The position numbers were made by a program, and so were the translations under genes. DNA of 32,000 bases from Candidatus Scalindua sp. (GTDB lineage Bacteria > Planctomycetota > Brocadiia > Brocadiales > Scalinduaceae). The notes under the pieces were generated by a model, which did no database searches, was not told where the DNA came from, and was given only the letters and a program-made list of their open reading frames with translations. The DNA lies in assembly GCA_031316235.1 (NCBI GenBank), contig JALDRA010000001.1, positions 660,001 through 692,000 of the forward strand, read 5' to 3'. Positions 1,965-27,773 of this stretch are shown one piece after another (position 1 is the stretch's first letter; every line of letters starts with the position of its first letter).

Positions 1965-2032
1965 CATACTGAAACCGATTTAGTTTTAGATTTTTCTGAA
2001 AACCAGAACGATTTCAGTATAAGATGAGTATA
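1965..2032 (-). repeat. Family-1 repeat, copy F (internally deleted mini-copy)
   Basis: It reads cATACTGAAACCGATTTAGTTTTAGATTTTTCTGAAAACCAGA...AGATGAGTATA. The right arm is joined almost directly to the left terminus. Confidence 0.75.
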
Positions 2033-2109
2033 CGTTCCGGGTTGTCATTATATCCTTTTTACGATTTACTTGCGAAAGAAAAATACCCGTCACAACAGTG
2101 ATGTTGATC

Positions 2110-2138
2110 TTGACAATTTGATACCGTAGAGGTATCCT
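2110..2138 (+). promoter_or_regulatory. Putative sigma-70 promoter of mutS (TTGACA-17-TATCCT)
   Basis: The consensus -35 is at 2110-2115, followed by a 17-nt spacer and a TAnnnT -10 at 2133-2138. The palindrome CTGTAAAATTTACAG (2137-2151) overlaps the -10 and start region. Confidence 0.35.
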
Positions 2139-2252
2139 GTAAAATTTACAGCATGATTCCAGCCACAACCATTTTTTTAATAACAGCACGCTCTGTCCGT
2201 TAAAAAACTTGTTACAGTAAGGTTATATATTTCATAGACAGCAAGGAAGAAT

Positions 2253-4904
2253 ATGGTTAATTCAACGCCCATGATGAAACAGTATCTGAGTATTAAAAAA
2301 AAACACGAAGACGCATTGCTGTTTTTCCGCATGGGAGATTTCTATGAAATGTTCTTCGATGATGCCAGGATTGCGTCGAAGATTCTCGGGATCACGCTGA
2401 CCTCGCGATCTAAGGGGGAAAAGGCTATCCCGATGGCCGGAATTCCTCACCACGCTGCTGATTCTTATATCCAGAAGTTGATTCAAACCGGCTACAAGGT
2501 TGCCGTATGCGAACAGCTGCAGGAAAATGGAAGAAAATCTCCTTCAACGGGAGGGGGAGAAAAGGGCATAGTAGAGCGTGATGTTGTAAGGGTAATTACA
2601 CCCGGAACCCTTACGGAAGATGCAATGCTCAATGACACCGATAACAACTATCTTTTATCGATTTTTCTTCATGATGATATTGTTGGCTTGTCATGGGTTG
2701 ATATCTCTACCGGGAAATTCATGGTACAGGACATTCAGAGGGACCGCTTGATGGATGAGTTGACGAGGATAGGTCCGTCTGAGTGTATACTGCCAGAAAA
2801 TATTACCTTTAAAGAGTATGACATCTCAAAGAGGTTAACAGGAGACTTTAATACTATGGTGACCTATCGGGCGGATTGGGAATTTTCAAGAGATTCCGCC
2901 TATACGAAACTTCTCAATCATTTTTCCACTACATCACTCGAAGGGTTTGGATGTGAAGAGAACGGTCCTTCCATAAGTGCAGCAGGAGCCTTGATACACT
3001 ATCTGAACGAAACACAGAAGACATCTCTCAAACACATCAACAGGCTTGAAAAATTTTCCAGTAATAACAACTTGATCTTAGACTATTCAACACAACACAG
3101 CCTCGAGCTGGTTAAGACCTCAAGAACCCGGCAGAAAGAGGGTTCTTTATTAAGCGTTATGGATAAAACGAAGACTCCCATGGGAGGGAGATTGATCAAA
3201 AGCTGGCTGGTAAGTCCGTTGAGTATATCACAGGACATTAAATCGAGGCAGGATGGGGTAGCAGAGCTCTATGAAAACAGTAATCTCTGCAGGGATGTAA
3301 GAGATATATTAAAGGATATTTATGACCTGGAAAGAATTACCTCAAAGATCAGCTTTGGGAGAGCAAATGCGAGGGATCTTATCTCTCTCTTACTATCACT
3401 CTCTCTCTTACCAGAAATAAAGAAAATAATTTCTGCCTGCAATTCCCCTGTCCTCAAGTCACTTTACGAGACACTGGATGTATTAGAGGAGGTCAGGTCG
3501 CTTATCAGTAACACGATAAATCCGGAACCTCCCTTCTCTATTCGTGAAGGTGGAATGATACAGGATGGCTACAACCATGATCTGGATGAGTTACGTAATA
3601 TCAGCAGAAATGGAAAAGGCTGGATAGCAAACTTTCAGGCTGAGGAGATAGAGAGAACAGGCATAAACTCATTAAAGATTGGTTATAATCGGGTCTTTGG
3701 ATATTACCTTGAAATAACAAATGCCCACAGATGTAATATCCCCGAGACATATATACGGAAACAGACGCTCAAGAATGCGGAGAGATATATAACCCCGGAA
3801 CTCAAGGAATACGAAACGAAGGTGCTTACGGCTGATGAACGGGCAAAGGATCTTGAATATCGCATCTTCCAGGACACACGGGAGAGAATAAATACTTTTA
3901 CGGAGCGTATCCAGAAAATGGCCGATGTAATCGCCCACTTAGACTGCATTTTTACTTTAGCAAATATCGCTGTCGAAAATGGATATTCGCGACCCGTTAT
4001 TACGGATGAGTGCAAACTCACAATTATTGAAGGCAGACATCCAGTCCTTGAAAAGACATTAATTAACGAGAAGTTTATCCCGAATGACATTGATATTGAT
4101 GGAGAAGAGAATCAAATCATGGTCATTACGGGGCCGAACATGGCGGGAAAAAGTACCTATATTCGACAAGTAGCCCTGCTTGTCTTAATGACACAGATGG
4201 GGAGTTTCATTCCAGCGAAAGAAGCTACCATAGGGACTGTTGACAGAATTTTTACGCGAATTGGAGCAATGGATGAATTAGCAAAAGGTCAGAGTACCTT
4301 TATGGTTGAAATGAATGAGGCTGCCAACATCCTTAATAATGCAACAAGGCGGAGTTTGATAATACTGGATGAGGTTGGTCGGGGTACCAGCACATTTGAT
4401 GGAGTAAGTATCGCGTGGGCTTTAACCGAATATATTTATGAACATCTCAAATCAAGGACGCTCTTTGCCACACACTACCACGAACTTACAGAATTAGCCC
4501 TGCTTTTCCCCGGCATAAAAAACTATAACATTGCCGTGCGGGAATGGGAGGAAGAGATAATCTTTTTACGAAAGATAATTGAAGGCGGTGCAGATAAAAG
4601 CTACGGTATTCATGTCGCGAGATTGGCAGGAATGCCGAAAGAGGTAATTCAGAGAGCAAAGGTGATACTTGGCAATCTTGAGGCTGAAACACTTGACATA
4701 AACGGCAAACCAAAATTTGCAACCCTTGACAGGAGTAAAAAGAAAAGTAAGATGCAACCAATACAACTTCCGCTCTTTAATCCGTCTGAAAACCAGATAA
4801 TTGAAGAGTTAAAGAGCCTTGACATTTCAAAAACCACTCCTCTTGACGCTCTCAACACGCTTCACAAGTTAAAGGAAAGGTTAGAAAATGATGCCGGATA
4901 TTAG
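2253..4904 (+). CDS. mutS: DNA mismatch repair protein MutS
   Basis: The N-terminus TPMMKQYLSIKKKH..LLFFRMGDFYEMF, the Walker A motif GPNMAGKST, and STFMVEM and DEVGRGTST are all MutS motifs across an 883-aa product. Confidence 0.95.
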   Translation: MVNSTPMMKQYLSIKKKHEDALLFFRMGDFYEMFFDDARIASKILGITLTSRSKGEKAIPMAGIPHHAADSYIQKLIQTGYKVAVCEQLQENGRKSPSTGGGEKGIVERDVVRVITPGTLTEDAMLNDTDNNYLLSIFLHDDIVGLSWVDISTGKFMVQDIQRDRLMDELTRIGPSECILPENITFKEYDISKRLTGDFNTMVTYRADWEFSRDSAYTKLLNHFSTTSLEGFGCEENGPSISAAGALIHYLNETQKTSLKHINRLEKFSSNNNLILDYSTQHSLELVKTSRTRQKEGSLLSVMDKTKTPMGGRLIKSWLVSPLSISQDIKSRQDGVAELYENSNLCRDVRDILKDIYDLERITSKISFGRANARDLISLLLSLSLLPEIKKIISACNSPVLKSLYETLDVLEEVRSLISNTINPEPPFSIREGGMIQDGYNHDLDELRNISRNGKGWIANFQAEEIERTGINSLKIGYNRVFGYYLEITNAHRCNIPETYIRKQTLKNAERYITPELKEYETKVLTADERAKDLEYRIFQDTRERINTFTERIQKMADVIAHLDCIFTLANIAVENGYSRPVITDECKLTIIEGRHPVLEKTLINEKFIPNDIDIDGEENQIMVITGPNMAGKSTYIRQVALLVLMTQMGSFIPAKEATIGTVDRIFTRIGAMDELAKGQSTFMVEMNEAANILNNATRRSLIILDEVGRGTSTFDGVSIAWALTEYIYEHLKSRTLFATHYHELTELALLFPGIKNYNIAVREWEEEIIFLRKIIEGGADKSYGIHVARLAGMPKEVIQRAKVILGNLEAETLDINGKPKFATLDRSKKKSKMQPIQLPLFNPSENQIIEELKSLDISKTTPLDALNTLHKLKERLENDAGY

Positions 4905-4913
4905 AGGCTGGAT

Positions 4914-4936
4914 GGTCAGGGCAAAATTGCCTGACC
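4914..4936 (+). terminator. Stem-loop immediately downstream of the mutS stop (no U-tract)
   Basis: GGTCAGG(G)C...GCCTGACC forms an 8-bp stem with one bulge, 10 nt after the stop. It lacks a T-run, so terminator function is uncertain. Confidence 0.25.
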
Positions 4937-4983
4937 CCGGAGCATCAGCCTGTGGTGCAGACTTTACAAAGGGCATGGAAAGT

Positions 4984-5096
4984 TATACTCATCTCATAAT
5001 GGTTTTCGGATAAAATCCGAGATAAAATTGAGCGAGTATAACTGCAACCAGGATTTGGTTTCCGGTAAAACCGAAAACCAAATCGGTTTTAGTATA
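4984..5096 (+). repeat. Family-1 repeat, copy A+ (central segment deleted)
   Basis: TATACTCATCTCATAATGGTTTTCGGATAAAATCCGAGATAAAATTGAGCGAG is followed by ...AACCAGGATTTGGTTTCCGGTAAAACCGAAAACCAAATCGGTTTTAGTATA. Confidence 0.85.
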
Positions 5097-5407
5097 TATG
5101 ATAGCAATGCGGGAACCCGGGAGGAACAGGTCTCGGACACCCGATATAAGTGCTCGGTGAATGAGAGAAACCGCGCATGCAGAAAACTAACTGGACACTA
5201 CTGAACATTTATAGTATTTTTACCCGTTGTATAGTGATGTTCGGTTTTCAGAACCCGATATTACATGAATGTTACATTTAACGTAACCGTATGATCTGAA
5301 ATTCCATAAATCATTTTGCAAGAGGTAAATCTCTGTGATCAGGCTATGCAGCCGCCGGGTTTATCCGCAAACAGGAATTGAAGATACATTTCACTTTTGA
5401 AGGGTTA

Positions 5408-5492
5408 TATACTAAAACCAAATCCTGGTTAATGGTAGACCCGCTCCATTTTTACTCGAATTTTATCCGAAAACCATTATAAGACGAATATA
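5408..5492 (-). repeat. Family-1 repeat, copy A- (shortened), inverted relative to A+
   Basis: The reverse complement reads TATATTCGTCTTATAATGGTTTTCGGATAAAATTCGAG...ACCATTAACCAGGATTTGGTTTTAGTATA. It ends 4 nt before the pepF ATG. Confidence 0.85.
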
Positions 5493-5496
5493 ACAT

Positions 5497-7281
5497 ATGA
5501 GTGAGACAAAAACGCGAGACGAGATTGATAACAGATACAAATGGGATCTGTCAGTATTATATGCATCGGACAGTGATTGGGAAACAGACTTTCGTAAGGC
5601 GGAAAAAGAATACTCACAACTTTTGTCATACAAAGGGTCTCTCGATGATCCCCGTAAGCTTGAAGAATTCATGCCTCTGTACAGTGACCTTTCCAGTATT
5701 GAAGAAAATTTGTGTGTCTACGCAATAGCACGCTTTTTTGAAGATACCAGTAACACTACCTATGAAGAGATGAAGGGACGGATAGAGCTGCTTATCTCAA
5801 AGATTACGGCAGAAACTGTTTTTATAAAAAAAGAGCTCTCGTCATTGACAAACGAAACTATTAGTGCAATTCTGAGTAATAATCCACAACTGGAGAAGTA
5901 TCGCTTCTTTTTAGAAAGTTATTCCCGTTACCATCTCCATATCCTGTCCGAAGAGACAGAAACTGTTTTGGCAGAGCTCAGCATAGTGATTGGAAAACTT
6001 AACGATATCTTCTCGGCCTTCAATGATAACAATATACAGTTTGAAGACTTTGAACACAATGGAGAAAAAATACATCTTTCACATGCCCGGTATTCCCAGA
6101 TTTTAGAGTCTCCTGATCGAGAACTGCGCAAAAAAACATTCGATTTCTATTATCGCCCCTACCAGCAGAATATTGACGTTCTGGCAAATACCTATGCCGC
6201 TCATGTACTGGCAGAGATTAAACTTATGAAGGTCCGCAACTATCCGTCCATGATAGAAAAGGCCCTGTTTCCGGACTACTTACCATCCGTGGTATTTCAT
6301 AATCTCATTGATGTAGCAAAAGAGAATATCGGTGTAATCAGCGAGTTTAATACCCTCAAGCAAAAAGAGCTGGGGATTTCTGAACTGCACTTTTATGATA
6401 ATTATGTTCCACTGGTTAAAAACTTTGACCGGGAATTTTCATACCAGGAGACGATTGAGCTGGTCAGATCAGCCCTTAAGCCGCTTGGCCCAGAATACAG
6501 AGCACAGTATGATGATACCATCAAGGCGCGTGTGATCGATGTCTTTGAATCTCGCAACAAACGTTCAGGCGCCTTCTCCTGGGGGAGTTATGCGAGCCGC
6601 GGTCTCGTGTTTTTAAATTACACAGGAAAGTTTTCTGATGTCTCTACATTTGCGCACGAACTGGGGCATTGCCTGCACCGCGATTACTCTATCAAGAATC
6701 AGCCCTTTATCTATTATCAAAATCCAATATTCCTGGCTGAAGTGGCTTCGACAGTAAATGAAACGCTCCTTTTTGACCACATGTCAAAGATTGCAGAATC
6801 AAAAGAAGAAAAAAAATTCTTCCTCTATCATAACATGAAGCGGATAGAGGCCACCTTCTACAGGCAGACCATGTTCGCTAATTTTGAAAAAGATATTCAC
6901 GAGATGGCTGAAGGCGGCGGCGTACTAATGTCGAAAAGTATAACGGACGTTTACAGGAAAAATCTTGCAGCCTATGTAGGAGAAGGGATGGTTATTGATG
7001 AACAGTTATCCTGCGAATGGGCACGCATACCACATTTTTATAATGCCTTTTACGTCTATAAATACGCGACCAGTTTGTCTGCTGCAATAGCGTTGTCCGT
7101 TCGTATAACTGCTGGTAAAAACGGTGCGGTAGAAGATTACCTGACATTTCTCGGCGCAGGATCACACAAAACACCACTCGAAATTCTCAACGACGCCGGT
7201 GTCGACCTTACGAAGAAGGATGCGTATGAAGTAACAGTGAGAAAATTTAAAACATTATTAGATGAGTATAAGTCCTTGTAG
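5497..7281 (+). CDS. pepF: Oligoendopeptidase F (M3B metallopeptidase)
   Basis: It is 594 aa with the zinc motif HELGH (FAHELGHCLH) and a PepF-like N-terminus (RYKWDLSVLY). Confidence 0.85.
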   Translation: MSETKTRDEIDNRYKWDLSVLYASDSDWETDFRKAEKEYSQLLSYKGSLDDPRKLEEFMPLYSDLSSIEENLCVYAIARFFEDTSNTTYEEMKGRIELLISKITAETVFIKKELSSLTNETISAILSNNPQLEKYRFFLESYSRYHLHILSEETETVLAELSIVIGKLNDIFSAFNDNNIQFEDFEHNGEKIHLSHARYSQILESPDRELRKKTFDFYYRPYQQNIDVLANTYAAHVLAEIKLMKVRNYPSMIEKALFPDYLPSVVFHNLIDVAKENIGVISEFNTLKQKELGISELHFYDNYVPLVKNFDREFSYQETIELVRSALKPLGPEYRAQYDDTIKARVIDVFESRNKRSGAFSWGSYASRGLVFLNYTGKFSDVSTFAHELGHCLHRDYSIKNQPFIYYQNPIFLAEVASTVNETLLFDHMSKIAESKEEKKFFLYHNMKRIEATFYRQTMFANFEKDIHEMAEGGGVLMSKSITDVYRKNLAAYVGEGMVIDEQLSCEWARIPHFYNAFYVYKYATSLSAAIALSVRITAGKNGAVEDYLTFLGAGSHKTPLEILNDAGVDLTKKDAYEVTVRKFKTLLDEYKSL

Positions 7282-7359
7282 GTGAAAAAATAATCAAACC
7301 CGTACCTGATTAAGGAGGTACGGAATGTAATAATACAATACCCATTGTGAATACAGAAA

Positions 7360-8379: not shown

Positions 8380-8439
8380 AAATAACGGGTAATCACGTGT
8401 TGGAGAAATCATGAAGTTCAATGCCTGTCTAGAGAAACA

Positions 8440-9477
8440 TCAACCAGCAGGTACACCTGTCAACCTTCTTCCTTTTTTTCCTCTGGTCAGTTTCTCCAGC
8501 AGGCAGAACTGTTCCGGTTCTCCAATTACGGCCACCTTGTCTCCCACCTCTATAACGGTATCAGCTTCAGGGTTGAACAATATTTTTCCCTCTCTTTTTT
8601 TCAGGGCAATGATTATGACTCCCTTTTTCGTGCGAACATCTGCATCTTTGATTGTCTTTCCTGCCAGTAAGGAGCCCTCTTCAACAAGAACTTCCTCTAT
8701 CTGAATTTCCATGCTGCCCGTTTTTGCCGTCAACTCAAGGAAATCAACCACCGTGGGCTTAAGCACAGTATGGGCTATCCTGAGGCCTCCAATGTGATAT
8801 GGAGAAACAACCTTGTCAGCACCCGCCCGTTTCAGTTTGTAATCTGCACCCTCCTCACTTGCCCTTGCAACAACAAAGAGATCCTCTTTTAATCCCTTTG
8901 CACTGAGCACAACGTAAAGATTCTGGGCATCTGAATCAAGGACTGATATCAGGCCTTTCGCTCTCTCAATACCCACACTCTTGAGAAGTTCATCTTTTGT
9001 CGCATCCCCGTAAGCTATGATGGTATCGTCATCTGCATCATGCTCTTCCCTGAACTCCTTTTCCACAACTACAAAAGAAACCTTCTTCGCCTTAAATTCG
9101 CTGCAAATCACCTTCCCCATTCGACCGTAGCCGCAGACAATGTAATGATCCTTCAGTGACTCTAATGTTTTTTTCAATCTTCTTCTCCCGAAAACTTCCT
9201 GTATCTCACCTTCAAATATAGCCCTTACACCATTATTCACCGAATATCCGACGATACCCAGGCCCAGAAGGATAAGGACAATCGTAAATACCTTTCCCAG
9301 TTCTGAAAGGGGTTCTACCTCCTGAAAACCTATCGTTGAAAGGGTAATGATTGTCATATAGAGAGAATCAAAGATCTCCCATCCCTCAATAATAGTGTAG
9401 CCTGAAGTCCCCAACACGAAAACAAAGCCAAGGAGGATTATGGGCAAAATAAGCTTTTTTGATAAAAAGGATTGCAC
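8440..9477 (-). CDS. Two-TM ion channel with cytoplasmic RCK (TrkA-N plus TrkA-C) domains, with a non-canonical pore filter
   Basis: The N-terminus is TM-pore helix-TM. A Rossmann motif (IVCGYGRMG) and a C-terminal TrkA-C-like region follow. The filter reads TIGFQE instead of TVGYGD. Confidence 0.75.
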   Translation of the reverse strand: MQSFLSKKLILPIILLGFVFVLGTSGYTIIEGWEIFDSLYMTIITLSTIGFQEVEPLSELGKVFTIVLILLGLGIVGYSVNNGVRAIFEGEIQEVFGRRRLKKTLESLKDHYIVCGYGRMGKVICSEFKAKKVSFVVVEKEFREEHDADDDTIIAYGDATKDELLKSVGIERAKGLISVLDSDAQNLYVVLSAKGLKEDLFVVARASEEGADYKLKRAGADKVVSPYHIGGLRIAHTVLKPTVVDFLELTAKTGSMEIQIEEVLVEEGSLLAGKTIKDADVRTKKGVIIIALKKREGKILFNPEADTVIEVGDKVAVIGEPEQFCLLEKLTRGKKGRRLTGVPAG

Positions 9478-9559
9478 TGTTTTGCACTAAGGTTTAAAAA
9501 TTAAAAATAAGGTAATATGCCTGGACAGATCGTACAGACATCAGAGCACCGATTCTCTT

Positions 9560-9702
9560 TATACTCGTCTTATAATGGTTTTCGGATAAACTCCGGGAAA
9601 AAACGGAGCGGGGAAAGTCCTCGGCGCCTGGTTTTGCCCGGGGATACCATTAACCAGGCTCTGGTTTTCAGAAAAATCTAAAACCATATCGGTTTCAGTA
9701 TA
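9560..9702 (+). repeat. Family-1 repeat, copy B+ (full length)
   Basis: It is collinear over 143 bp with copies C and D. Confidence 0.9.
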
Positions 9703-9799
9703 TCTTGTCTGAAATTACTATAATCACCGTGAGAAGTCAAGGCTTCAGTTATAACGGAGACAGTTTTCAGAATAAAGTATGATTCTGGAAAAAATCCTT

Positions 9800-9912
9800 T
9801 TTTACCGGAAACTAAATCCTGATGAAGGTATCCCCGGACAAAAAGCGCCGAGGACTTTCCCCGCTCAATTTTATCTCGGATTTTATCCGAAAACCATCAT
9901 GAGATGAGTATA
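9800..9912 (-). repeat. Family-1 repeat, copy B- (right arm truncated), inverted relative to B+
   Basis: The reverse complement reads TATACTCATCTCATGATGGTTTTCGGATAAAATCCGAGATAAAATTGAGCGGGGAAAGTCCTCGGCGCTTTTTGTCCGGGGATACCTTCATCAGGATTTAGTTTCCGGTAAAA. The inner boundary is approximate. Confidence 0.8.
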
Positions 9913-10087
9913 TTCAACCGTACCCTCGATACCGAAGGCCGGAAGTAAGAAAGCGTTTTCCATGATCTGACTTTTTGGGTAAATCCTGTTTTCCTCGTCA
10001 TACTAGCTGGTAGTAAAACGGAGAGGGGATGTTTTCTTGCATGAGACAATAGGAGATCTCTGGTATACCGTAAGCTTCATTCTGATC

Positions 10088-11464
10088 TCATGTTCCAACC
10101 ACTTTCAGTTGCCTCCATTTTCCACTTCGATATCTCAGGTAAAAGGTTGCTGCAATAAATGGTATCGTAAAAACAACTCCCATCCAGGTAATTTCTGGTG
10201 ATAAATGTAAAACGCGAATCATCACAACAGCTTCCGCTGCAAGCAGCCAATGAAAGGAAACTGATATGATCATGGCCCAGAATGTATCACCAGACCCGCG
10301 AAGGGCTCCGGAGTAAACAAGTGCAAATCCATCAGCAATCACATAAACAGCAATCATTCTGACCATGTACTCAGCCAATTCAGAAAAGTTTTCTGCCGAC
10401 TCAGGGTCTGAGAGAAATATAGACACCAGATGTCCTGGAAAAAGAACGAACAGCCCCAGCATTAAAACGGCATAGACACTGACCATTTTCAAACCGGATT
10501 TTGTCGTTCGATGTGCGTAGTCTGTCAAGCCAGCTCCCATATAACGACCTACCAGGGAGGTCACCCCGATATTCACCCCAATCAAGGGAATATATGACAC
10601 AAGATCCCAGTTAAAGGCAATGGTGACAGAGGCTGCCACTTCGAGACCATAGGAATGGAAAAGCAGAACAATCAGATCAAATGCCATCAAATTTAAAAAA
10701 AACTCCAATCCACCCGGGTAACCAAAGCGCAGCAGCTTTTTCATTATGAGCCAGTCAAAACGAAAGCTTTTTGAGATCTCAAAATTTCTGTGGCCTTTGT
10801 GATAAAATATATATCCTGCAATGACAACCATAAGTCCGCATGTACTGCCAATAATGGTTCCAATTGCTGCTCCCCTGATTCCCATAGCCGGGAAACCACC
10901 TTTACCCAGAATTAACAGGTAATTGACAACGACATTGATCGACATGGTAATGAGGGAAGAGATCATGACGATTCGGGTTTTTCCGATTCCACAGAAAAAT
11001 CCATTCAGGCTGTTTCTTACAATACCCAGGAAAGTACCGAACATTAGAATATCAAAATAGACTTGAGCGAGATCCTGCTGTACCGGACTATGACCAACAA
11101 TTTTAAATAACCCGTGCCCGATGGGGATACAGGCCAGCATGACAGGATAAGCCAATACTGAGATAATTACCGCCTGGAATACTACAACCGCACAGTTTTT
11201 CTCCTGGCCGGCACCGAAATATTGGGCTACCAAAGGGGTCACATATCCCGTTAACCCGATAAAAAACGTCATAAACATGAAAGCAGTCAAACCGCCGCTC
11301 ATCGAAGCTGCCATATGCGTGGGGCTTACCTGGGAAAGAAAAAGTCGATCGGTAAACAGCATGACGGTTTCACACGCTTGAGAAATCACCATGGGCATTG
11401 CGATGGCCAGAAGCTGCAAAATTCCACCCGGTCCGCTTACATATTTCTTCAAAGAACGATTCAT
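10088..11464 (-). CDS. MATE family efflux transporter
   Basis: It is a 458-aa, roughly 12-TM protein with a NorM/DinF-like N-terminus (LLAIAMPMVISQ...LFTDRLFLS). Confidence 0.85.
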   Translation of the reverse strand: MNRSLKKYVSGPGGILQLLAIAMPMVISQACETVMLFTDRLFLSQVSPTHMAASMSGGLTAFMFMTFFIGLTGYVTPLVAQYFGAGQEKNCAVVVFQAVIISVLAYPVMLACIPIGHGLFKIVGHSPVQQDLAQVYFDILMFGTFLGIVRNSLNGFFCGIGKTRIVMISSLITMSINVVVNYLLILGKGGFPAMGIRGAAIGTIIGSTCGLMVVIAGYIFYHKGHRNFEISKSFRFDWLIMKKLLRFGYPGGLEFFLNLMAFDLIVLLFHSYGLEVAASVTIAFNWDLVSYIPLIGVNIGVTSLVGRYMGAGLTDYAHRTTKSGLKMVSVYAVLMLGLFVLFPGHLVSIFLSDPESAENFSELAEYMVRMIAVYVIADGFALVYSGALRGSGDTFWAMIISVSFHWLLAAEAVVMIRVLHLSPEITWMGVVFTIPFIAATFYLRYRSGKWRQLKVVGT

Positions 11465-11509: not shown

Positions 11510-11773
11510 AGCAGTTGAACCAAAACCGCCGACATACCGGCCGCGCTGATTTTCTTAACCGGAACTTGCCCGTATATACTCATCTCATAATGGTTTTCGG
11601 ATAATATCCGAGATAAAATTGAGCGAGTAAGGTCCTCAGCGCTTATTGTCCGGGGATACCATTAACCAGGCTTTGGTTTTTAGAAAGATTTAAAACCAGA
11701 TCGGTTTCAGTATACTTGAAGGTTACGGAATTATTACCGCAATGCAGTAGATGGGTACTACTCGTTCAACCAC
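11510..11773. repeat. Family-X element, copy X3, split by the family-1 copy C insertion
   Basis: The left part is AGCAGTTGAACCAAAACCGCCGACATACCGG...AACCGGAACTTGCCCGTA and the right part is CTTGAAGGTTACGGAATTATTACCGCAATGCAGTAGATGGGTACTACTCGTTCAACCAC. Both align to contiguous X1 sequence. Confidence 0.75.
11575..11714 (+). mobile_element. Family-1 repeat, copy C (full length), inserted inside family-X copy X3
   Basis: It is a 140-bp copy. Its flanks (11510-11574 and 11715-11773) rejoin to give a complete family-X element, and TA dinucleotides sit on both junctions. Confidence 0.85.
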
Positions 11774-13210: not shown

Positions 13211-13901
13211 GTATGCACCTGCTTATCCTTTCTTCCTGAATAATACCATGACGAATAATTTCAAACGTTTCTCTATACACCTTTACTACAGTTGATGGTT
13301 TTTTTAGTTGTGTTGGCCCGTCGTCAAGGACCAAATCGATCTTGTCACCAAGATAAGCTGCTACCTGTTGAGCATCAATGGCCGGTTGGCTCCCTGAAAT
13401 GTTTGCACTTGTAGAGGCAATGGGAACCCCTGCACACCTGATGATATCTCTTATCACCCGGTTATCCGGATTCCTGAACCCAATGGTTGTCATATCAGGG
13501 AGTAGCAGGACAATAGTAAGAGGGCCCGGCCAGAAGAGCTTCATCAGCTTTTCGGCAGCTGGTGGTAACTCTCTCACCCACTCCTTTACCGCTTCTGAAT
13601 CCGTAACCATGATAGCCATCTTTTTCTCTTCGGGCCTCTCTTTCACCCTGTATAAGTTTTCAATTGCATCTCTGTTATGTGCATTCACACCGAGACCATA
13701 GAGTGTCTCCGTAGGAAACGCCACAATCCTGCCTGCAAGCAAGGCCTGTACAGCCTTTTCTATATTTTCAGAATAGGAGTCTCGATCTTGTAGATCCAGG
13801 ATCTGTATACCCAAAGCATCATTACTCGACAAAATTTTCTTTCCCAAAAAAACAGTACCCTTAACTGCTGGTTGAACGAAAACTTCCCGGTTACAAGGCA
13901 T
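13182..13901 (-). CDS. tsaC: L-threonylcarbamoyladenylate synthase (YrdC/TsaC type)
   Basis: It has the YrdC domain motif PTETLYGLG and a later SANISG motif. It overlaps the rpiB start by 29 nt. The annotated ATG and first 12 codons lie inside repeat X2, so the real start may be an internal TTG. Confidence 0.75.
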   Translation of the reverse strand: MPCNREVFVQPAVKGTVFLGKKILSSNDALGIQILDLQDRDSYSENIEKAVQALLAGRIVAFPTETLYGLGVNAHNRDAIENLYRVKERPEEKKMAIMVTDSEAVKEWVRELPPAAEKLMKLFWPGPLTIVLLLPDMTTIGFRNPDNRVIRDIIRCAGVPIASTSANISGSQPAIDAQQVAAYLGDKIDLVLDDGPTQLKKPSTVVKVYRETFEIIRHGIIQEERISRCIHEDSLSLRS

Positions 13902-13990
13902 GCCGATTTCCCAACCCGAATGCAGTACCGTTGCTGAGGATTACGGAGTTGTTACAGCAGCACAGGAGAAAGTTATTTTCATTCAACCTT
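13867..13990. repeat. Family-X element, copy X2 (diverged)
   Basis: GCTGGTTGAACGAAAACTTCCCGGTTACAAGGC...CTGAGGATTACGGAGTTGTTACAGCAGC...AGTTATTTTCATTCAACC is collinear with X1. Confidence 0.7.
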
Positions 13991-18280: not shown

Positions 18281-18564
18281 AGTCACCGGGATATGCTGCT
18301 GCGTCCCCTGGTTCCCTGTTCCGTGTTGTGTTTGGGCACGAAGCAGCATATCCCCGCGATCTGTATGGTAACTTTCAATAAAGCCTTGTTTGTTTTTCGG
18401 TGTGATTACAAATCCGTATTTGATGTAGCACTCCGTAACCTGTCCAGTTCACTTTATCGATACAAAAAGGGTTCTTTCCCTTCCTGTAATTCCTGCATTC
18501 CTTAGCTAAAAAAGTTTTTCCAGGGAGTGCTTAAACGGAAGGGGGAATACACCCATGAAAACCC

Positions 18565-18692
18565 AGTGGTTGAACGAAAACTGCCCAGATACAAGGCGCG
18601 TAATAATTTTGTAACCGGAACGTACTGATGTACTTGAGGATTATGAAATTATTACAGCAACGCCGTAGGTGGGTAGTTTTCGTTCAACCACT
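18565..18692. mobile_element. Family-X MITE-like element, copy X1 (128 bp, with 18-bp perfect terminal inverted repeats)
   Basis: AGTGGTTGAACGAAAACT at 18565-18582 is the exact reverse complement of AGTTTTCGTTCAACCACT at 18675-18692. It has no coding capacity. Confidence 0.8.
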
Positions 18693-18698
18693 AAATAA

Positions 18699-19280: not shown

Positions 19281-19294
19281 AGTATCTTGAACTC

Positions 19295-19630: not shown

Positions 19631-19722
19631 TTATGTCTCTGTGCCTTTGTACGAATACTTATTTCTAAATTATAAACTTAAGAGAAGATGAGGCAAGTAT
19701 TTTCTTGAGGAAACAAGTCCCA

Positions 19723-19751
19723 TTGACATATTTGCATTTTACATTTATAGT
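19723..19751 (+). promoter_or_regulatory. Putative sigma-70 promoter of dinB (TTGACA-17-TATAGT)
   Basis: It has a consensus -35, a 17-nt spacer and a near-consensus -10, 43 nt upstream of the ATG at 19794. Confidence 0.45.
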
Positions 19752-19793
19752 AATTATTTCAAAAAATAGTTACACAAACACAGATACAAGAAA

Positions 19794-20954
19794 ATGGACA
19801 TCAGGAAGATCATTCATGTTGATATGGATGCTTTTTATGCGGCAGTGGAGGTTTTAGACAATCCATCGCTCAAGGGTCGTCCGGTAATTGTGGGAGGCAG
19901 TCCGGAGAGCCGATCGGTTGTCTGTTCGGCAAGCTACGAAGCGAGGAAATTCGGGATACAATCTGCAATGCCCTGCTCTCTAGCCAAAAGACTGTGTCCG
20001 AATGCACTCTTTGTGAGACCCAATTTTGCCCGATATAAAGAGATTTCAGGCAGAATTCATGAAATCTTCAAACGGTATACCGTTCATATTGAAACCATTT
20101 CCCTTGATGAAGCGTGGCTGGATGTTACCGTAAACCTGAAAAACATACCATCGGCAACCCGGATTGCGCAAAGAATTAAGGAACAGATAAGGGATGAGCT
20201 GAAATTGACCTGTTCTGCCGGGGTATCGTATAATAAATTTCTCTCAAAGATTACCTCGGACGAGAAAAAACCTGATGGGTTATTTGTTATAACTCCGGAT
20301 GAGGCACCTGAATTCCTCAACTCACTGGAGGTTGGTAAGGTATCAGGTGTCGGAAAGGTTACTCAGAAAAAACTTGAAACACTGGGAATAAAGTTTGGGA
20401 GTCAGTTACAGGAGAAGAATGAGGAATTTCTCGTCAAACATTTCGGTAAAATGGGACGTCACCTTTTTCACATTATAAGGGGAAAAGATCCCCGTCCCGT
20501 CTGCAGCCATAGAGTAAGAAAATCGATGAGTCTTGAAAATACCTTCGAAACCGATTTACTGTATGGTGAACGCATTCTGGAAGAGCTGAAAACTCTTGTT
20601 CATGCATTGAGAGATAAGCTGCTAAAACAATCACTTCAGGGGAGAACGGTAACACTTAAAGTTAAATTCGAAGATTTTCAGCAGATTACAAGGAGCATTT
20701 CATGCTATGAACCTTTTACTACCTGTGAAGATATTTTCGGACATTGCAGGGAAAAGCTGACGAATATCTGCAATTTTGAGTTTAGAGGTAAAGGAATAAG
20801 ACTGCTTGGGGTGGGAGTCTCAAATTTTATAACAAATGACCAGGAATATGTGCAATTAGATTTCTGCCACCTGCTCCGGCAGCCATCACCGGTTTATGGT
20901 TCCGGGTTGCCTTGGTACAATAATTGTTTATACTTAAACCGCTTCCTGGCTTAA
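19794..20954 (+). CDS. dinB: DNA polymerase IV (Y-family)
   Basis: It has the N-terminus IIHVDMDAFYAAVE, the motif SLDEAWLDVT, and little-finger homology ending near RLLGVGVSNF...QLDF. The last 30 or so aa look like non-homologous read-through. Confidence 0.9.
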   Translation: MDIRKIIHVDMDAFYAAVEVLDNPSLKGRPVIVGGSPESRSVVCSASYEARKFGIQSAMPCSLAKRLCPNALFVRPNFARYKEISGRIHEIFKRYTVHIETISLDEAWLDVTVNLKNIPSATRIAQRIKEQIRDELKLTCSAGVSYNKFLSKITSDEKKPDGLFVITPDEAPEFLNSLEVGKVSGVGKVTQKKLETLGIKFGSQLQEKNEEFLVKHFGKMGRHLFHIIRGKDPRPVCSHRVRKSMSLENTFETDLLYGERILEELKTLVHALRDKLLKQSLQGRTVTLKVKFEDFQQITRSISCYEPFTTCEDIFGHCREKLTNICNFEFRGKGIRLLGVGVSNFITNDQEYVQLDFCHLLRQPSPVYGSGLPWYNNCLYLNRFLA

Positions 20955-21387
20955 AGAGGCGGGCATTGAAATATCCTTTTATGTTCTCCTCGGTCTTGGA
21001 GGCAGGGATCATTGGCAGAGGCACATTCATAAAACAGCTCAACTTATCAATGAAACAGAACCCGAATATGTTCGCATCAGGCGGTTGTGGCTCTATGAAA
21101 GTGATCCCTGCTTTTCCAGTCCCGAAAGCCCGCTGTTAAAAGAGATCCGGAACGGCGCTTTTCAGCCTCAAACCCCTGAAGGCTGCGTTCGCGAACTGAA
21201 GATGCTGATTGAAAAGCTCAACAGGCTTTCCACATTTGTGGCCTGTGACCACGAAAATAATTATGTACATGTTTCAGGCATCTTGAAAGAGAGCAAAGAG
21301 CGTATGCTTGCCATTATTGATAACTTCCTTACCCTTCCGGAAACAAAAAGAGATGCCCATTATCTTGCAGTTGGTTCTCGAATATAA
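20923..21387 (+). pseudogene. 3' remnant of a radical-SAM family gene (C-terminal half only)
   Basis: The same frame as ORF 21085-21387 stays open back to 20923. It reads LKEAGIEISFYVLLGLGG...EPEYVRIRRLW...FVACDHENNY...MLAIIDNFL, which resembles the C-terminal half of radical-SAM proteins. There is no CxxxCxxC region and no plausible start. Confidence 0.45.
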
Positions 21388-21434
21388 CCAGAAGCATGTA
21401 TGCAGCCAGCCAGCGATCTTCCTCTTCAGTCTGA

Positions 21435-21573
21435 TATACTAAAACCGATTTGGTTTTCGGTTTTACCGGCAACCAGATCCTGGTGAAGGTATCCCCGGAC
21501 AAAAAGCGCCGAGGACCTTACTCGCTCAATTTTTTCCCGGATTGTATCCGAAAACCATTATACGATGAGTATA
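21435..21573 (-). repeat. Family-1 repeat, copy D (full length)
   Basis: It is a 139-bp copy whose reverse complement is collinear with copies C and B+. Its right arm is the CCGGTAAAACCGAAAACCAAATCGGTTTTAGTATA subtype. Confidence 0.9.
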
Positions 21574-21635
21574 AATCAGCCGACTGCAACTGACATTCAA
21601 TGGCGTGGGTCAATGTATCGGGCCTATTTTAATTA

Positions 21636-21665
21636 TTGCAATATCGTTTTGTTGTGTTTTAATAT
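21636..21665 (+). promoter_or_regulatory. Putative sigma-70 promoter of asnS (TTGCAA-18-TAATAT)
   Basis: Both hexamers are good matches and the spacer is 18 nt. An 8-bp hairpin (21670-21677 with 21692-21699) lies in the predicted leader. Confidence 0.3.
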
Positions 21666-21713
21666 TCACCTCTCTTTCTTCTATCACACGCAAAGAGAGA
21701 TGAAAAAATAGTA

Positions 21714-23156: not shown

Positions 23157-23436
23157 TTCGTGGTTGATCCGTAAGAGAAGTGTTCACCGAAAAATTTGGG
23201 AATTCATCCGGCCCTGGAGTGATCACCCTCCGCCTTGAGACTGGTGGGGTATAGGATTACGGAATATCTGCACTGCAAATTAAGCTACCTGAAACCGGCA
23301 GGTTGCCAGGGGGGAATTGTCATACATTTTTTGCTGTTATTCCAAAAAGTGTAAGGATATAATTTTTACATGCTGATTGCTTATTTTCATTCTGCGTTGA
23401 AGTATTCTGGAGTGCCCGGGTTGGAGGAGAACACCA

Positions 23437-23739
23437 GTGTCTGAGTGGATCCATATAGAAAAAGATCCGAAGCATGTTGCCAGGGAGAAAGCGAAGGCAA
23501 AGGATATGAGGAAATTGCAATGGTGGAAGAACAGGATCTCCCCGGGTGTCTGCTACTATTGCCACGATACCTTCCCGCCTGACGAACTTACCATGGACCA
23601 TATTATCCCTTTGTCAAGGGGAGGCAGAAGTACAAAGGGAAATATCGTGCCGTGTTGCAAGCGCTGCAACAACAGGAAAAAATATCTGACCCCGGCGGAG
23701 ATAGCGCTAAACAAACTCAGGGATCAGGATGCACCCTGA
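23437..23739 (+). CDS. Small stand-alone HNH endonuclease
   Basis: It has the HNH core CYYC...DHIIPLSRGG....N.VPCCKRCN. A GTG start is preceded by a strong GGAGGA at 23423-23428. The 3' end overlaps the convergent gene by 33 nt. Confidence 0.75.
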   Translation: MSEWIHIEKDPKHVAREKAKAKDMRKLQWWKNRISPGVCYYCHDTFPPDELTMDHIIPLSRGGRSTKGNIVPCCKRCNNRKKYLTPAEIALNKLRDQDAP

Positions 23740-24435
23740 AAGAAGAAAGAGTAAGAGATAAAAAAAGCAAAGATTCTGCCCCTGATCATTAACAATCAGG
23801 GATCGGACAGTCAGATAAACTGTCAGCCCGTTCAGAATATGCCAGAGAAAGTGTGTGCCTGCAGGAAAGGATGAACATACAATAAGGTCGATCGTGCGGA
23901 AGATTATGGCAAAAAGAAATACACCTGCAGCAGTCAGGATAATATAGGGTTCTCTCCTGCGTTTCCGATAATGGTAGACGCCCAGCACCAGAAGTAACGC
24001 AAATGCTGGTGCATAGATGAGTGAACCATTCAGAATCGGTGGCAGTAGTGTCATGATAGATCCAATCAAGACGAATCCGGTAAGGAAGGCGGCTGTAAGA
24101 TAACACCGAAGGTGCATGACCTGGCGGAAGTAGAGCCATAAAAAGAGGAGTTGAAAGAGGAGAATGGGGATACGGTCAAACCACTCTGCCCACGGTGTTG
24201 CAAAGGTGTGCCACAGGGTGGACCCTGCCCCCACCGTGATAACGAGACCTGTCAGTACCCAGAGACCCGTTGACAGCCCATTACACCGTCTAGCCGTCAA
24301 CCAGGCACAAAATGCAGCAACGAAGAACGCCGCATTCGTTGATGCGTTTAAGGGTTCAGCAAATAACCCTGGTCCAGATCTCTCGCAATACTCCATTGTA
24401 ATTACCTCATTACCATGAGTAATATCGTGCCCCAA
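23707..24435 (-). CDS. Ceramidase-family (alkaline ceramidase-like) 7-TM membrane protein, putative
   Basis: It has N-terminal YCE...AEPLNASTNAAF, then STLWH......W...D.IP, and C-terminal H.LWH. This pattern resembles PF05875-type proteins. The start may be Met14 at 24396. Confidence 0.45.
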   Translation of the reverse strand: MGHDITHGNEVITMEYCERSGPGLFAEPLNASTNAAFFVAAFCAWLTARRCNGLSTGLWVLTGLVITVGAGSTLWHTFATPWAEWFDRIPILLFQLLFLWLYFRQVMHLRCYLTAAFLTGFVLIGSIMTLLPPILNGSLIYAPAFALLLVLGVYHYRKRRREPYIILTAAGVFLFAIIFRTIDLIVCSSFPAGTHFLWHILNGLTVYLTVRSLIVNDQGQNLCFFYLLLFLLSGCILIPEFV

Positions 24436-24530
24436 AGGGAGGACTCATTAATTTCAATAATACCTTGTTTACCCATTGCATATTCATGCAGGTTCCCTCA
24501 TACCGTATCTCATTTCTGCTGAGCCGTTGA

Positions 24531-24599
24531 GGGGTTCAGGGTTCAGGGTTCAGGGTTCAGAGTTCAGGGTTCAGGGTTCAAGGTTCGGAGTTCAGGGTT
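24531..24599. repeat. Heptanucleotide tandem repeat (GGGTTCA), about 9.7 units, 6 of them perfect
   Basis: This is a direct reading of the sequence. It lies between the Kef-type gene stop (24693) and the ceramidase-like gene start (24435). Confidence 0.95.
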
Positions 24600-24692
24600 A
24601 CATTATTCTGTTTACCCTGGTTTTAAGAATGCAGGTACCTCATGAAACCATCCCATGCCTTTCTGACAGTACCCGGTGGCTGTTGCGTGAAG

Positions 24693-26357
24693 TTATTTTT
24701 TCCCGAACTCAGGCGCCATTATTTTACTAATAATCTCTCTCGCTTCCAGGGACAATGGAATTATGGTATAATCTACTCCAATCTGTTCCAATTCCCGCTG
24801 TTGGTTTTCAGTCAAGGCCCTTGCAATTACCATGATTTCAGGGTTATATACTTTCGCATACCTGGTGGCAATCTTTTTTGTCTGCATATCATAGATAGCC
24901 AGGATCAATACCTTGGCAAACGGTAGACCAGCCTTGATCAAAAGATGATGATTCATTGCATCCCCAAACAGATATCTGTATCCATTATTTTTCAGTGTTT
25001 TTATTTTCTTTATATCGTTTTCTATTACGATCATCTCTTTTTTTCCCTTCAGCCCATCGGCAATCCTGTTTCCTGAACTTCCAAAGCCGCAGAGTATGAC
25101 ATGATCATTCAATTCTTTTTTTGTCTCTTTACTCTCCTCCAGCGTATAGTGGGGAATATACCGCAACAATGTACCCAGGGGAAGTTTTTTCGTAAAGAAC
25201 ACATATACGCTATCTGATTTGCTGATTGCAACAGGTGTAAGCATTATTGAAACAAGCGCGGCAGCAATTGTTGATGAAAATATGGTAGGAGAAAGAAATC
25301 CATGTTCCTGACCAATAGTTAGCATCACAAAGGAGAATTCACCAATCTGCATCATACCCATACCCACCCTTACGGAAGTCTTACCATCATATCCAAATAT
25401 CCATGTAGGTAATGCACAGGAAACAAATTTCCCGAACATGATGAGAAAGGTGAGCAATGCAACGAATGCGATGTTATTCACGAGTATCATGGGATTTATA
25501 AACAATCCGACTGAAACAAAAAAAATAACGATAAATATATCTTTCAGAGGACGTATCTGGGCAGAGATTTCCAGGTTGTATTCAGCCTCTGAAAGCAGAA
25601 AACCTACGATAAAGGCACCTAACGAAATAGAGAGACCTAACAAGTGTGTGGTCACGGAAATACCTATTGCAAACGAGAAAATGGAAAGAAGAAACATCTC
25701 TTTGTTTCCGGTCCTTACTATGAGGTACATTACCTTTGGTAAAAGTTTTCTCCCTATAAATACTATGGAACAGAGAACCAATACACTGAAACCCAGTACT
25801 TTTGCAAAATTGAGAATATTGCCGCCGGCAATATTCTCAAAATTTATGATAAAACATACCATAATAACCACAGCCAGGTCCTGAACGATAAGCAGCCCGA
25901 CAATTATTCTGCTGTGTAGCCGTTCCATTTCTCTGCGTTCAGTTAAAATCTTTACGATAATCATGGTACTGCTGATGGAACCAATCATTCCCAAAAGGAG
26001 TGAATTCTGTAATGAATACCCCATGATCCGGGAAAGAAAATACCCGGCAGCAACCATGAAAACTATCTGAAAAACACCACCAAAGATGATGACTTTCCAG
26101 ATGTTCCCGAGCTTGGAAAACCTGAATTCCACCCCGATAACAAACATAAGGAGTGCAACTCCAATTTCAGCGAGAGAATTCACTTCACCCACTCTCTGGA
26201 TCAAACCAAAACCATACGGCCCAATCATTATGCCTACGAGTATGTAAGCAAGAATAACCGATTGCTTCAACTTATACGCAAAGATCCCGAATAAGAAAGA
26301 AGCGGAGATGATAATGACAATGTCAAAGATAAACGTTATTGAACCTGAATCATCCAT
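24693..26357 (-). CDS. Cation:proton antiporter (CPA2/Kef-type) with a C-terminal TrkA-N (RCK) domain
   Basis: It has a polytopic Na+/H+ exchanger-like N-terminal region of roughly 390 aa (ILVGIMIGPYGFGL), followed by the Rossmann motif VILCGFGSSG. Confidence 0.8.
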   Translation of the reverse strand: MDDSGSITFIFDIVIIISASFLFGIFAYKLKQSVILAYILVGIMIGPYGFGLIQRVGEVNSLAEIGVALLMFVIGVEFRFSKLGNIWKVIIFGGVFQIVFMVAAGYFLSRIMGYSLQNSLLLGMIGSISSTMIIVKILTERREMERLHSRIIVGLLIVQDLAVVIMVCFIINFENIAGGNILNFAKVLGFSVLVLCSIVFIGRKLLPKVMYLIVRTGNKEMFLLSIFSFAIGISVTTHLLGLSISLGAFIVGFLLSEAEYNLEISAQIRPLKDIFIVIFFVSVGLFINPMILVNNIAFVALLTFLIMFGKFVSCALPTWIFGYDGKTSVRVGMGMMQIGEFSFVMLTIGQEHGFLSPTIFSSTIAAALVSIMLTPVAISKSDSVYVFFTKKLPLGTLLRYIPHYTLEESKETKKELNDHVILCGFGSSGNRIADGLKGKKEMIVIENDIKKIKTLKNNGYRYLFGDAMNHHLLIKAGLPFAKVLILAIYDMQTKKIATRYAKVYNPEIMVIARALTENQQRELEQIGVDYTIIPLSLEAREIISKIMAPEFGKK

Positions 26358-26459
26358 GTTAATTTACGTTAAAGAATAAAACTGTGGAAGAATAAGGAGT
26401 TATTTGAGTCTTAAACCGGTAGCTGGAAACCATTACAATACCTCCCGGATCAGCGGGCT

Positions 26460-26488
26460 ATTATTGGTAAGGTGGTCTGGTTTGTCAA
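26460..26488 (-). promoter_or_regulatory. Putative sigma-70 promoter of the CPA2/Kef-type gene (TTGACA-17-AATAAT on the minus strand)
   Basis: The reverse complement of 26483-26488 is TTGACA. A 17-nt spacer follows, and the reverse complement of 26460-26465 is AATAAT. Confidence 0.4.
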
Positions 26489-26801
26489 GACCTTTTTTAA
26501 CTACTTCCGAGATGCATTACTGCATAAACAACAACAGGCAAAAGGGTAACGGAAGGAGTCCGCCCGCCTGAACGATTCTTTCGGGCAGGCAGGAATATGG
26601 TTATTGCCTGTGCATAATTGAATCAGGGAAGTGCTTCATGATGATTCCATACTCCATTGAGCGGAGAAGATTCTGCTGCTCTTTTGTTAATAGATCTGCA
26701 AGGCTCCTCTATGCAGAAGCCTGAACCGGGAAATGGCAGGAAAATAAGAACTCAAAAGAGTTAATTACTGGTGTGGCGGGTTGTCGATATTTTCCCATTT
26801 A

Positions 26802-27725
26802 TTACTTTGAAAGATCTCCATGGTCATTGAAACTCTCAGACAGTTTCAAGAAATTTGATTCTAAATCAACAAGGGATGGGCCGTTTGTCCTTTCATTAAA
26901 AAAGTTTTCCACTTTCGACAACTCCCCTAGTTCAATAGCTACCCGCAATGACTTAAAACGCGCAACCATCATTGATCGTTCACGGTTGGAATCATTTATC
27001 AATCGATTACAGATCTGCTCTGACAGAAAGGAAAAATTCCTCAGCGATTCAGCACCCTTCAGTCTACTCTTTATAGTCTTTTCATTCTGGATTTCCTCGA
27101 TCAATCTCAACCATTTCTCTTGAAGCCTTACACGCTCTTTGATAGGTAATTCCGACGCAACCGACGTTGGGTCAAAATTGATTTCGGTCCAATCATGATA
27201 CTCTTCAGGCAGTTTCTGTGTTAATCGTTTCTGCACAAACTCTACAGTTTCTCTGCATTCATCCATGACAGTGTCGACAACTCTCTTTTGAATTTTCTGC
27301 TCCTCTTCAAGACGCACAATGTCTCCAATCTGTAACCTGTTATCACCTGCTGACTCTTCCCTGATCTTTGTTGCACGACTAACCACCTCATCAAGGATAT
27401 GCAGGGCCTCATTCTCCCTCTTATGAACCATTTTAAGTAACCCTTCCAGCCGGGACAGCTTGCGTCTGGCCACAAAACTTTTAAAATTCAATTTTGTCAG
27501 GATAGAATCGAACCAGTTTGGTTCGGCTTCAGAAATCATATTTCTGTAGATAGCCAGATACTTATTGGGAAGATGCAGAAGTGAATTAAGGTTTTCCTTT
27601 TTTCGCAGTATTGTTACAATGGTGTCGTCCTGTCCTGGTAACATGATATATTCCTTCCGGGCAAAATCGATCTGTATATATTCATCTAATAATGATTTTC
27701 GGACAGAATCCGAGAAAAAAACCAA
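26802..27725 (-). CDS. Hypothetical all-helical, charged protein of unknown function
   Basis: It is a long ORF with no competing frame, and I recognise no motif. Codons 1-16 lie inside repeat copy E. An alternative start is Met28 at 27644, giving 280 aa. Confidence 0.5.
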   Translation of the reverse strand: MVFFSDSVRKSLLDEYIQIDFARKEYIMLPGQDDTIVTILRKKENLNSLLHLPNKYLAIYRNMISEAEPNWFDSILTKLNFKSFVARRKLSRLEGLLKMVHKRENEALHILDEVVSRATKIREESAGDNRLQIGDIVRLEEEQKIQKRVVDTVMDECRETVEFVQKRLTQKLPEEYHDWTEINFDPTSVASELPIKERVRLQEKWLRLIEEIQNEKTIKSRLKGAESLRNFSFLSEQICNRLINDSNRERSMMVARFKSLRVAIELGELSKVENFFNERTNGPSLVDLESNFLKLSESFNDHGDLSK

Positions 27726-27773
27726 ACGAATCTAACCGCAGCCAGGCTTTGGTTTTTGTATACTGAAACCGGC
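27677..27773 (+). repeat. Family-1 repeat, copy E (degenerate), followed by a 15-bp inverted right-end fragment
   Basis: It reads TATATTCATCTAATAATGATTTTCGGACAGAATCCGAGAAAAAAA...GCCAGGCTTTGGTTTTT, then GTATACTGAAACCGG. It overlaps the annotated 5' end of ORF 26802-27725. Confidence 0.65.

Follow-up and report, generated by a model that had tools for sequence, protein, structure and literature searches.

A family of TA-flanked miniature inverted-repeat elements dispersed through the intergenic spacers of a Candidatus Scalindua subclade

The DNA analysed here is a stretch of 32,000 nucleotides (the window) from a Candidatus Scalindua genome of 4.15 Mb (assembly GCA_031316235.1, contig JALDRA010000001.1, positions 660,001 to 692,000), with a G+C content of 43%. 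Its genes include mutS (a DNA mismatch-repair gene), an oligoendopeptidase (pepF-like) gene, trmB (tRNA methyltransferase TrmB), the gene of a MATE efflux transporter (MatE), a TrkA-type gene and a translesion DNA polymerase gene (DinB-like, IMS family). The spacers of the window hold copies of a repeat of about 140 bp, which a first-pass annotation made from the sequence alone had reported at eight places and had read as a miniature inverted-repeat transposable element (MITE). We refer to this repeat as MITE-A. In a self-comparison of the window, each of the eight intervals appeared as a direct or inverted match, and together they align as one family. A nhmmer profile built from three full copies returned the same eight places and nothing else noteworthy in the window (Table 1). 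The 38-nt left-end pattern (at most three mismatches) matched the window three times and the 23-nt right-end pattern (at most two mismatches) six times, against 0.00 expected for each from 100 shuffles, and a chance origin of the copies is thereby excluded. A potential ninth copy at 7249-7274 was rejected as a chance match inside the conserved C-terminal coding sequence of the pepF-like gene (5497-7281).

Most of what the first-pass annotation said about these copies held on re-examination. All of them lie between long open reading frames (ORFs), as it had stated; for the copy starting at 27677, an overlap with ORF 26802-27725 arises only if an upstream TTG serves as the start codon, and there is an in-frame ATG downstream. 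The end given for this same copy, 27773, overshoots by about 11 nt. As stated, the copies add up to about 0.9 kb, but they make up about 14% of the approximately 6.3 kb outside the ORF set and not a fifth of the non-coding DNA. Two right-arm subtypes were confirmed among the window copies. Internally deleted derivatives were also present as described, although several of the supposed fragments are complete small derivatives with both tips, and the copy at 9800-9912 is the only one in the window that truly misses an end.

Table 1 Positions of MITE-A copies and of associated repeats (window coordinates unless a locus of another genome is named)
Feature	Position	Strand	Remarks
MITE-A, rearranged derivative	1965-2032	-	Two right ends, inverted (1965-2021), then 11-nt left tip (2022-2032); outer junction CA, not TA
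MITE-A, short form, 113 nt	4984-5096	+	Both tips kept; without the 27-nt GC hairpin module; 80 nt downstream of mutS
MITE-A, derivative, 85 nt	5408-5492	-	Both tips; two internal deletions
MITE-A, full copy, 143 nt	9560-9702	+	Absent from syntenic locus L168
MITE-A, truncated copy	9800-9912	-	Ends after model position 114; last ~25 nt and right tip gone
MITE-A, full copy, 140 nt	11575-11714	+	Inserted in F2 palindromic repeat; junctions TA-[TACT…AGTA]-TA
MITE-A, full copy, 139 nt	21435-21573	-	Right-arm subtype CCGGTAAAACCG
MITE-A, diverged short derivative	27677-~27762	+	Both tips (TATATTCATC…GGTTTTTGTATA); right boundary approximate
MITE-B, fragment	5221-5280	-	Model positions 121-180; between two MITE-A copies in the mutS-pepF spacer
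MITE-B, fragment	28046-28130	+	Model positions 2-86
MITE-B, full copy (example)	L008 4156-4337
MITE-B, full copy (example)	L031 2295-2476
F2, split by MITE-A	11510-11574 + 11715-11773 (11510-11773)		Filled site
F2	13869-13989
F2, intact	18565-18691		Paralogous empty site, single TA: ...GATG-TA-CTTGAGG
F2	31430-31541
Mini-hairpin-bearing locus	L027 6573-6741
Mini-hairpin-bearing locus	L010 5707-5878
Mini-hairpin-bearing locus	L065 4428-4650
Mini-hairpin-bearing locus	L106 5914-6139

A mobile element would be expected to have further copies elsewhere, as the first-pass annotation pointed out, and such copies were found. A scan of a genome collection (one genome per species) with the left-end pattern matched at least 120 stretches. 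Among the matches listed (80), all belonged to Candidatus Scalindua/Scalinduaceae (SCAELEC01, RBC_AMX3, CBDCUS01) or to one uncultured Planctomycetota genome. When the window and about 0.94 Mb of the matched loci were searched with nhmmer, 195 hits were obtained, 126 of them end to end; the numbers of hits per sampled genome were 95, 66, 24, 8, 6 and 1. More distant Scalindua-like metagenome contigs (45 loci, 429 kb), collected by a scan with the PepF protein (72-76% identical), contained none except for one marginal 31-nt hit, and these loci lacked synteny with the window and were of no use for locating exact empty sites. Viral contigs had no copy (a looser end pattern gave single matches only, with no paired ends, which we read as chance), and the plasmid collection gave no match. 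By this distribution, MITE-A is confined to one Scalindua subclade.

The ends of MITE-A are sharply defined. Across 110 unique full copies, the conserved sequence spans TATACT to AGTATA in every case (110/110), with a per-position conservation of 98-100% and no longer flanking duplication; the TACT and AGTA tips and the TA on each side, noted at the first reading for nearly every junction of the window, are present in all of these full copies. The bias of the flanking nucleotides is weak in these copies (A at -1 in 48%, T at +1 in 59%). In the consensus, the left end TATACTCATCTCATAATGGTTTTCGG and the reversed right end TATACTAAAACCGATTTGGTTTTCGG have in common a tip of 6 nt and, at the same distance from it, a box of 10 nt; both can be written as TATACT-N10-TGGTTTTCGG, with the box TGGTTTTCGG at positions 17-26 of each end. 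Copy lengths in the 195-hit set range from 57 to 196 nt, with main classes of about 112-113 and 139-140 nt and a smaller class of about 166 nt. Sequences of this size are too short for an ORF, in agreement with the initial remark that no element encodes a protein. The repeat had also been called hairpin-rich, and the predicted fold indeed consists of four local hairpins that are more stable than those of shuffled sequences (z = -4.1 to -4.8). Compensatory changes occur in only three of the 34 predicted pairs, and since the copies are too alike (91% identical per column), structural conservation cannot be claimed. The two right-arm subtypes each keep a hairpin with a shifted register, which was not counted as covariation. 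Two tip-only mini-derivatives were seen in other genomes, namely a 57-nt left-left palindrome (TATACTCATCTGATAATGGTTTCCGG…CCATTATCAGATGAGTATA) at about 4990-5050 of locus L097 and, at 7020-7049 of L032, a 30-nt fusion of a left tip with a right end, both of which sit where a related genome has a larger copy.

The TA on each side of the element had been proposed to be a target-site duplication, and nested insertions provide the clearest view of it. A near-perfect palindrome of about 126 nt (AGTGGTTGAACGAAAACTGCCCAGATACAAGGCG…), referred to as F2, has approximately 75 copies in the sampled loci, four of them in the window, and is a repeated target at two of its TA sites. It is hit by MITE-A and also by a sibling family, MITE-B (182 bp), which has TATACCCATYRCAAAWTGGTTTT at both ends, TA flanks and the same tip and TGGTTTT box. 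MITE-B gave 41 hits in the sampled Scalindua loci, occurs in the same genomes as MITE-A and presumably uses the same transposase. The intact F2 copy at 18565-18691 has a single TA, whereas the F2 copy split by MITE-A reads ...CCCG-TA-[TACT…AGTA]-TA-CTTGAAGG. Another F2 site, ...CCCAGA-TA-CAAGGCG, holds a MITE-A insertion in L055 and L019 and a MITE-B insertion in L031, with TA on both sides in each case. There are in total four nested insertions into F2 that show the duplication (one in the window and three in other genomes). A duplication of TA is the simple reading of these sites, because, if the element had brought both TAs with it, F2 would have had to lose a matching 2 nt at every site. 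One orthologous pair of loci is consistent with the duplication of a single TA: L013 reads TTAATCTAA-TA-ATTTTCC, and L097 reads TTAATCAGA-TA-[element]-TA-GTTGTCC with equal spacing. These comparisons show that a single target TA is duplicated on insertion and is not part of a fixed motif. The possibility that the TA flanks belong to a conserved non-mobile motif had been named as one that would undo the mobile reading, which survived this test at the nested F2 sites.

Copies of MITE-A are present at some loci and absent from the corresponding loci of relatives, the second point on which the mobile reading had been said to depend. Locus L168, 21 kb of the CBDCUS01 genome, is syntenic with the window from 7 to 21 kb; its MatE is 86% identical to that of the window and its coding DNA about 80%. 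It has zero MITE-A copies where the aligned stretch of the window has six, and CBDCUS01 carries the family elsewhere; in place of the window copy 9560-9702, L168 has about 27 nt. The single TA of L013, at the site filled in L097, is a further case. In L169, from another Scalindua genome, the trmB-MatE spacer has a copy opposite in orientation to that of the window. Copies of the same genome share a mean identity of 83-90% and copies of different genomes 80-89%, and some pairs are 99% alike across genomes, a pattern suggestive of activity over a long time or of a conserved master copy. For the same strain, contigs assembled from short reads (1.7 kb) end inside MITE-A copies. The interval from MatE to the TrkA-type gene (9477-10088) contains in the window just two MITE-A copies, where L168 and L169 have about 5.8 kb with extra genes (LPG_synthase_TM and Dak1/Dak2 in both, and a PAS histidine kinase in L168 as well). 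The truncated copy 9800-9912 lies at this synteny break, and the missing 5.8 kb may represent a MITE-associated deletion.

Short non-coding sequence, terminal inverted repeats, a target duplication visible against an empty site, and dispersed polymorphic copies are all found in MITE-A, and the reading of the window repeats as MITEs is supported. We consider it very probable that MITE-A is a non-coding, non-autonomous DNA transposon of about 135 bp (TACT…AGTA) that duplicates TA and is moved by a DDE transposase, most likely of the IS630/Tc1-mariner type. Such a transposase, encoded elsewhere, would bind the TGGTTTTCGG box, which lies 16 nt inside each tip and at the same distance from both ends. 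It would pair the two ends and cut at TA/TACT, and the element would be joined into a TA through a 2-nt staggered cut, the repair of which would duplicate the TA. Copies would then persist only where they are harmless, that is, in intergenic spacers, and would decay by deletions between or within the internal hairpins, giving rise to the 113-, 85- and approximately 57-nt derivatives. Of the original proposal of an IS630/Tc1-mariner-derived MITE, the MITE part holds. The transposase family is what we infer from the TA duplication and the architecture of the ends, the only features on which the attribution can draw, as the DNA sampled yielded no transposase bounded by such ends. Insertion at TA with a 2-bp TA duplication agrees with IS630/Tc1-mariner elements, as does the weak A/TA/T flank preference, and the bias to A at -1 and T at +1 fits an AT-rich context of the TA.

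Several observations weigh against this explanation. The first-pass annotation had suggested looking for a transposase gene bounded by matching termini, and about 1.4 Mb of Scalindua DNA, a fraction of each genome, yielded no autonomous element or transposase with MITE-A termini. A phmmer search with the Shigella IS630 transposase gave no hit among 4,821 ORF fragments. The two ends of MITE-A agree at only about 17 of 26 positions. The genomes that provide orthologous empty sites are only about 80% identical in coding DNA, so that their spacers barely align, and just one site is clean. A few other insertion sequence (IS) groups, IS5-family subgroups according to ISfinder, also generate 2-bp duplications. 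Finally, since mean copy identity within genomes reaches only 83-90%, the family may have ceased to be active in the genome of the window.

Other candidates for the partner were rejected. The split MITE-A copies in L063 and L107 contained an IS110-family element, the one in L057 contained a group II intron, and in L050 unrelated genes lay between two truncated copies. The neighbours of solo ends were ordinary genes. A search of the 1.4 Mb for paired end motifs at a spacing of 0.8-3 kb found none, and other DNA repeated within a genome consisted only of introns, the IS110 element and small genes.

The lack, in the sampled Scalindua DNA, of an IS630-like ORF and of any element with these ends that carries a transposase would also be expected if the same MITE, with the same TA duplication, were moved by a DDE transposase outside IS630/Tc1-mariner (for example one of an IS5-family subgroup, with duplications of 2-4 bp) or were an orphan without a living partner. 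The divergence of the copies (10-17%) would fit an old burst. We regard this alternative as unlikely. A strict TA duplication in a weak A/TA/T context is a known hallmark of IS630/Tc1-mariner elements, and a longer element with the appropriate ends may exist in the subclade. Three SCAELEC01 contigs (L039 1-125, L086 1-126, L091 1-123) begin with an identical 125 nt that ends in ...AAAACCATTTCGTAATGAGTATA, the same type of end and inverted repeat as in the MITE, and has an interior unlike MITE-A or MITE-B; the accessions concerned are SHMT01000042, SHMT01000004 and SHMT01000091. Because three contigs share this beginning, a recently active longer element is suggested; the 125 nt form the end of a collapsed multi-copy element, which is a candidate for the autonomous partner. 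A 34-aa open frame in this collapsed repeat led to no protein (the query was X-padded). IS630-family elements have also been reported in other anammox genomes (PMC7814187).

The genomic context of MITE-A favours the transposon reading over a function for the host. According to a crude gene model, 167 of 172 copies (97%) are intergenic. In tandem spacers, 48 copies have the same direction as the genes and 41 the opposite direction, and copies occupy convergent, divergent and tandem spacers in proportion to spacer length, with no preference for a strand or a gene end. No match to Rfam 15 was obtained anywhere in the window at gathering thresholds or at E 0.05, and the tRNA search found no tRNA gene there. 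Scans for consensus promoters and terminators gave nothing above background that mapped consistently to the copies. The left tip of the copy 5408-5492 stops 4 nt short of the pepF ATG at 5497, on its upstream side (region 5489-5499). In L169, the sequence upstream of the same pepF start codon is unrelated, and MITE-A therefore supplies the whole proximal upstream region of the window pepF. A selfish element filtered by selection fits these results, and an RNA gene, a terminator or an operator does not. Folding stronger than that of shuffles and the copy that stops just before the pepF start codon are what could speak for a structured non-coding RNA gene or a cis-regulatory or terminator module that is under selection and not mobile. 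Such a module is nevertheless highly improbable, given the absence of an Rfam match, the near absence of covariation, the lack of an orientation bias or of a preference for 5' or 3' gene ends, and the negative promoter and terminator scans. Moreover, copies are missing from syntenic loci of relatives and interrupt other repeats.

There is likewise very little chance that MITE-A is a REP/REPIN-like or IS200/IS605-derived palindrome moved as a single-stranded hairpin by a Y1 (RAYT/TnpA) transposase, as its four local hairpins (z of about -4 to -4.8) and the GC-rich mini-hairpins nested in its loops might suggest: a unit of about 140 nt far exceeds the 20-40 nt of a REP, the consensus has no GTAG-type head motif, and the symmetric inverted-repeat tips and the TA found on both sides of filled nested sites, against one TA in the empty sites, contrast with the asymmetric ends and lack of duplication that characterise Y1-mobilised elements, including the IS200/IS605-derived PATEs, which insert 3' of a fixed tetra- or pentanucleotide.

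Apart from its own insertions into F2, MITE-A has received insertions of other DNA. The GC-rich mini-hairpins (24-33 nt, e.g. CCCGCCCGGCCTGTCAGCCGTTCGGACGGG and CCTGCCTGTGCGATGCACGCAGACAGG) are nested in MITE-A hairpin loops at up to three levels. One of them is found in two different MITE-A loops, each time just 5' of TAAAA, and a few copies exist outside MITEs. None is present in the window copies; they occur in other genomes only. An IS110-family element (DEDD_Tnp_IS110 and Transposase_20 domains, with the ORF split in two; L063 4510-6204 and L107 at about 3246-4936) lies at the same GC-hairpin loop position in two MITE-A copies with differing right arms, which looks like site-specific targeting of MITE-A. 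This element had no Rfam match. A group II intron (RVT_1 and GIIM; L057 430-2500) splits a further MITE-A copy at model position ~36-40. A possible but rather unlikely reading is that other mobile DNA targets the hairpin loops of MITE-A, which would make the element a landing pad. If this were true, either because the mini-hairpins are a new class of loop-seeking micro-elements or because the IS110 guide RNA is programmed for the MITE hairpin, the clade would offer a natural system of layered, structure-targeted mobile DNA.

Two further features of the window deserve mention. In the region 20938-21392, the match of ORF 21085-21387 to a radical SAM gene (308 aa in L168) is limited to the C-terminal half of that gene, and the ORF is probably a 5'-truncated pseudogene beside the DinB-like polymerase gene (19794-20954). 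The spacer at 24518-24606 contains a tandem array of the heptamer GGGTTCA with about 12 units.

Bacterial MITEs are well known, and the present family changes no concept. Among the papers covered by full-text searches, none describes MITEs in Scalindua, and our results add a high-density, multi-family MITE system to the anammox Planctomycetota. The copies explain intergenic breaks in short-read Scalindua assemblies and are markers that separate strains and species. They also flag sites of rearrangement and possible effects on expression, as with the copy at the 5.8-kb synteny break and the copy that stops 4 nt before the pepF start codon. Studies of structure- or RNA-guided target choice could draw on the nested hairpins and the site-specific IS110 insertions.

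Comparison with known repeats places MITE-A among TA-duplicating MITEs. The REP/BIME/REPIN repeats of proteobacteria are, like MITE-A, abundant, intergenic and hairpin-forming; REPs, however, are short palindromes without inverted-repeat transposon ends or target duplication, and MITE-A has both. The nested small dispersed repeats and MITEs that are generally known from cyanobacteria provide a parallel for the layering seen here, with co-resident families inserting into one another and tiny hairpins nested in larger repeats. Host and sequences differ, and in Scalindua GC-rich hairpins sit in the loops of an AT-rich MITE. RUP of Streptococcus pneumoniae, other IS630-linked bacterial MITEs and the plant Stowaway elements (Tc1/mariner-derived) are commonly described as short, non-coding and bounded by inverted-repeat ends and a TA duplication, as is MITE-A, and the usual view of MITEs of the RUP and Stowaway type is that IS630/Tc1-mariner transposases act on them in trans. 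RUP has a known partner with matching ends, IS630-Spn1, whereas no such partner of MITE-A was encountered in the 1.4 Mb searched. The Correia elements of Neisseria (CREE/NEMIS) share with MITE-A a length of 100-155 bp, inverted-repeat ends that start with TATA, TA duplication, intergenic copies numbering in the hundreds, long and short forms set apart by an internal deletion, and the want of an identified cognate transposase. This likeness is one of architecture, drawn from general knowledge, and no sequence relation between the consensus sequences is apparent. The host of the Correia elements belongs to the Betaproteobacteria and that of MITE-A to the Planctomycetota, and, in contrast to Correia elements, MITE-A has two ends whose agreement is limited to the tip and a single subterminal box. 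For Correia elements, an IHF site, promoters and RNase III processing have been shown. By its overall architecture, MITE-A would seem to resemble the Correia elements most, with RUP also close.

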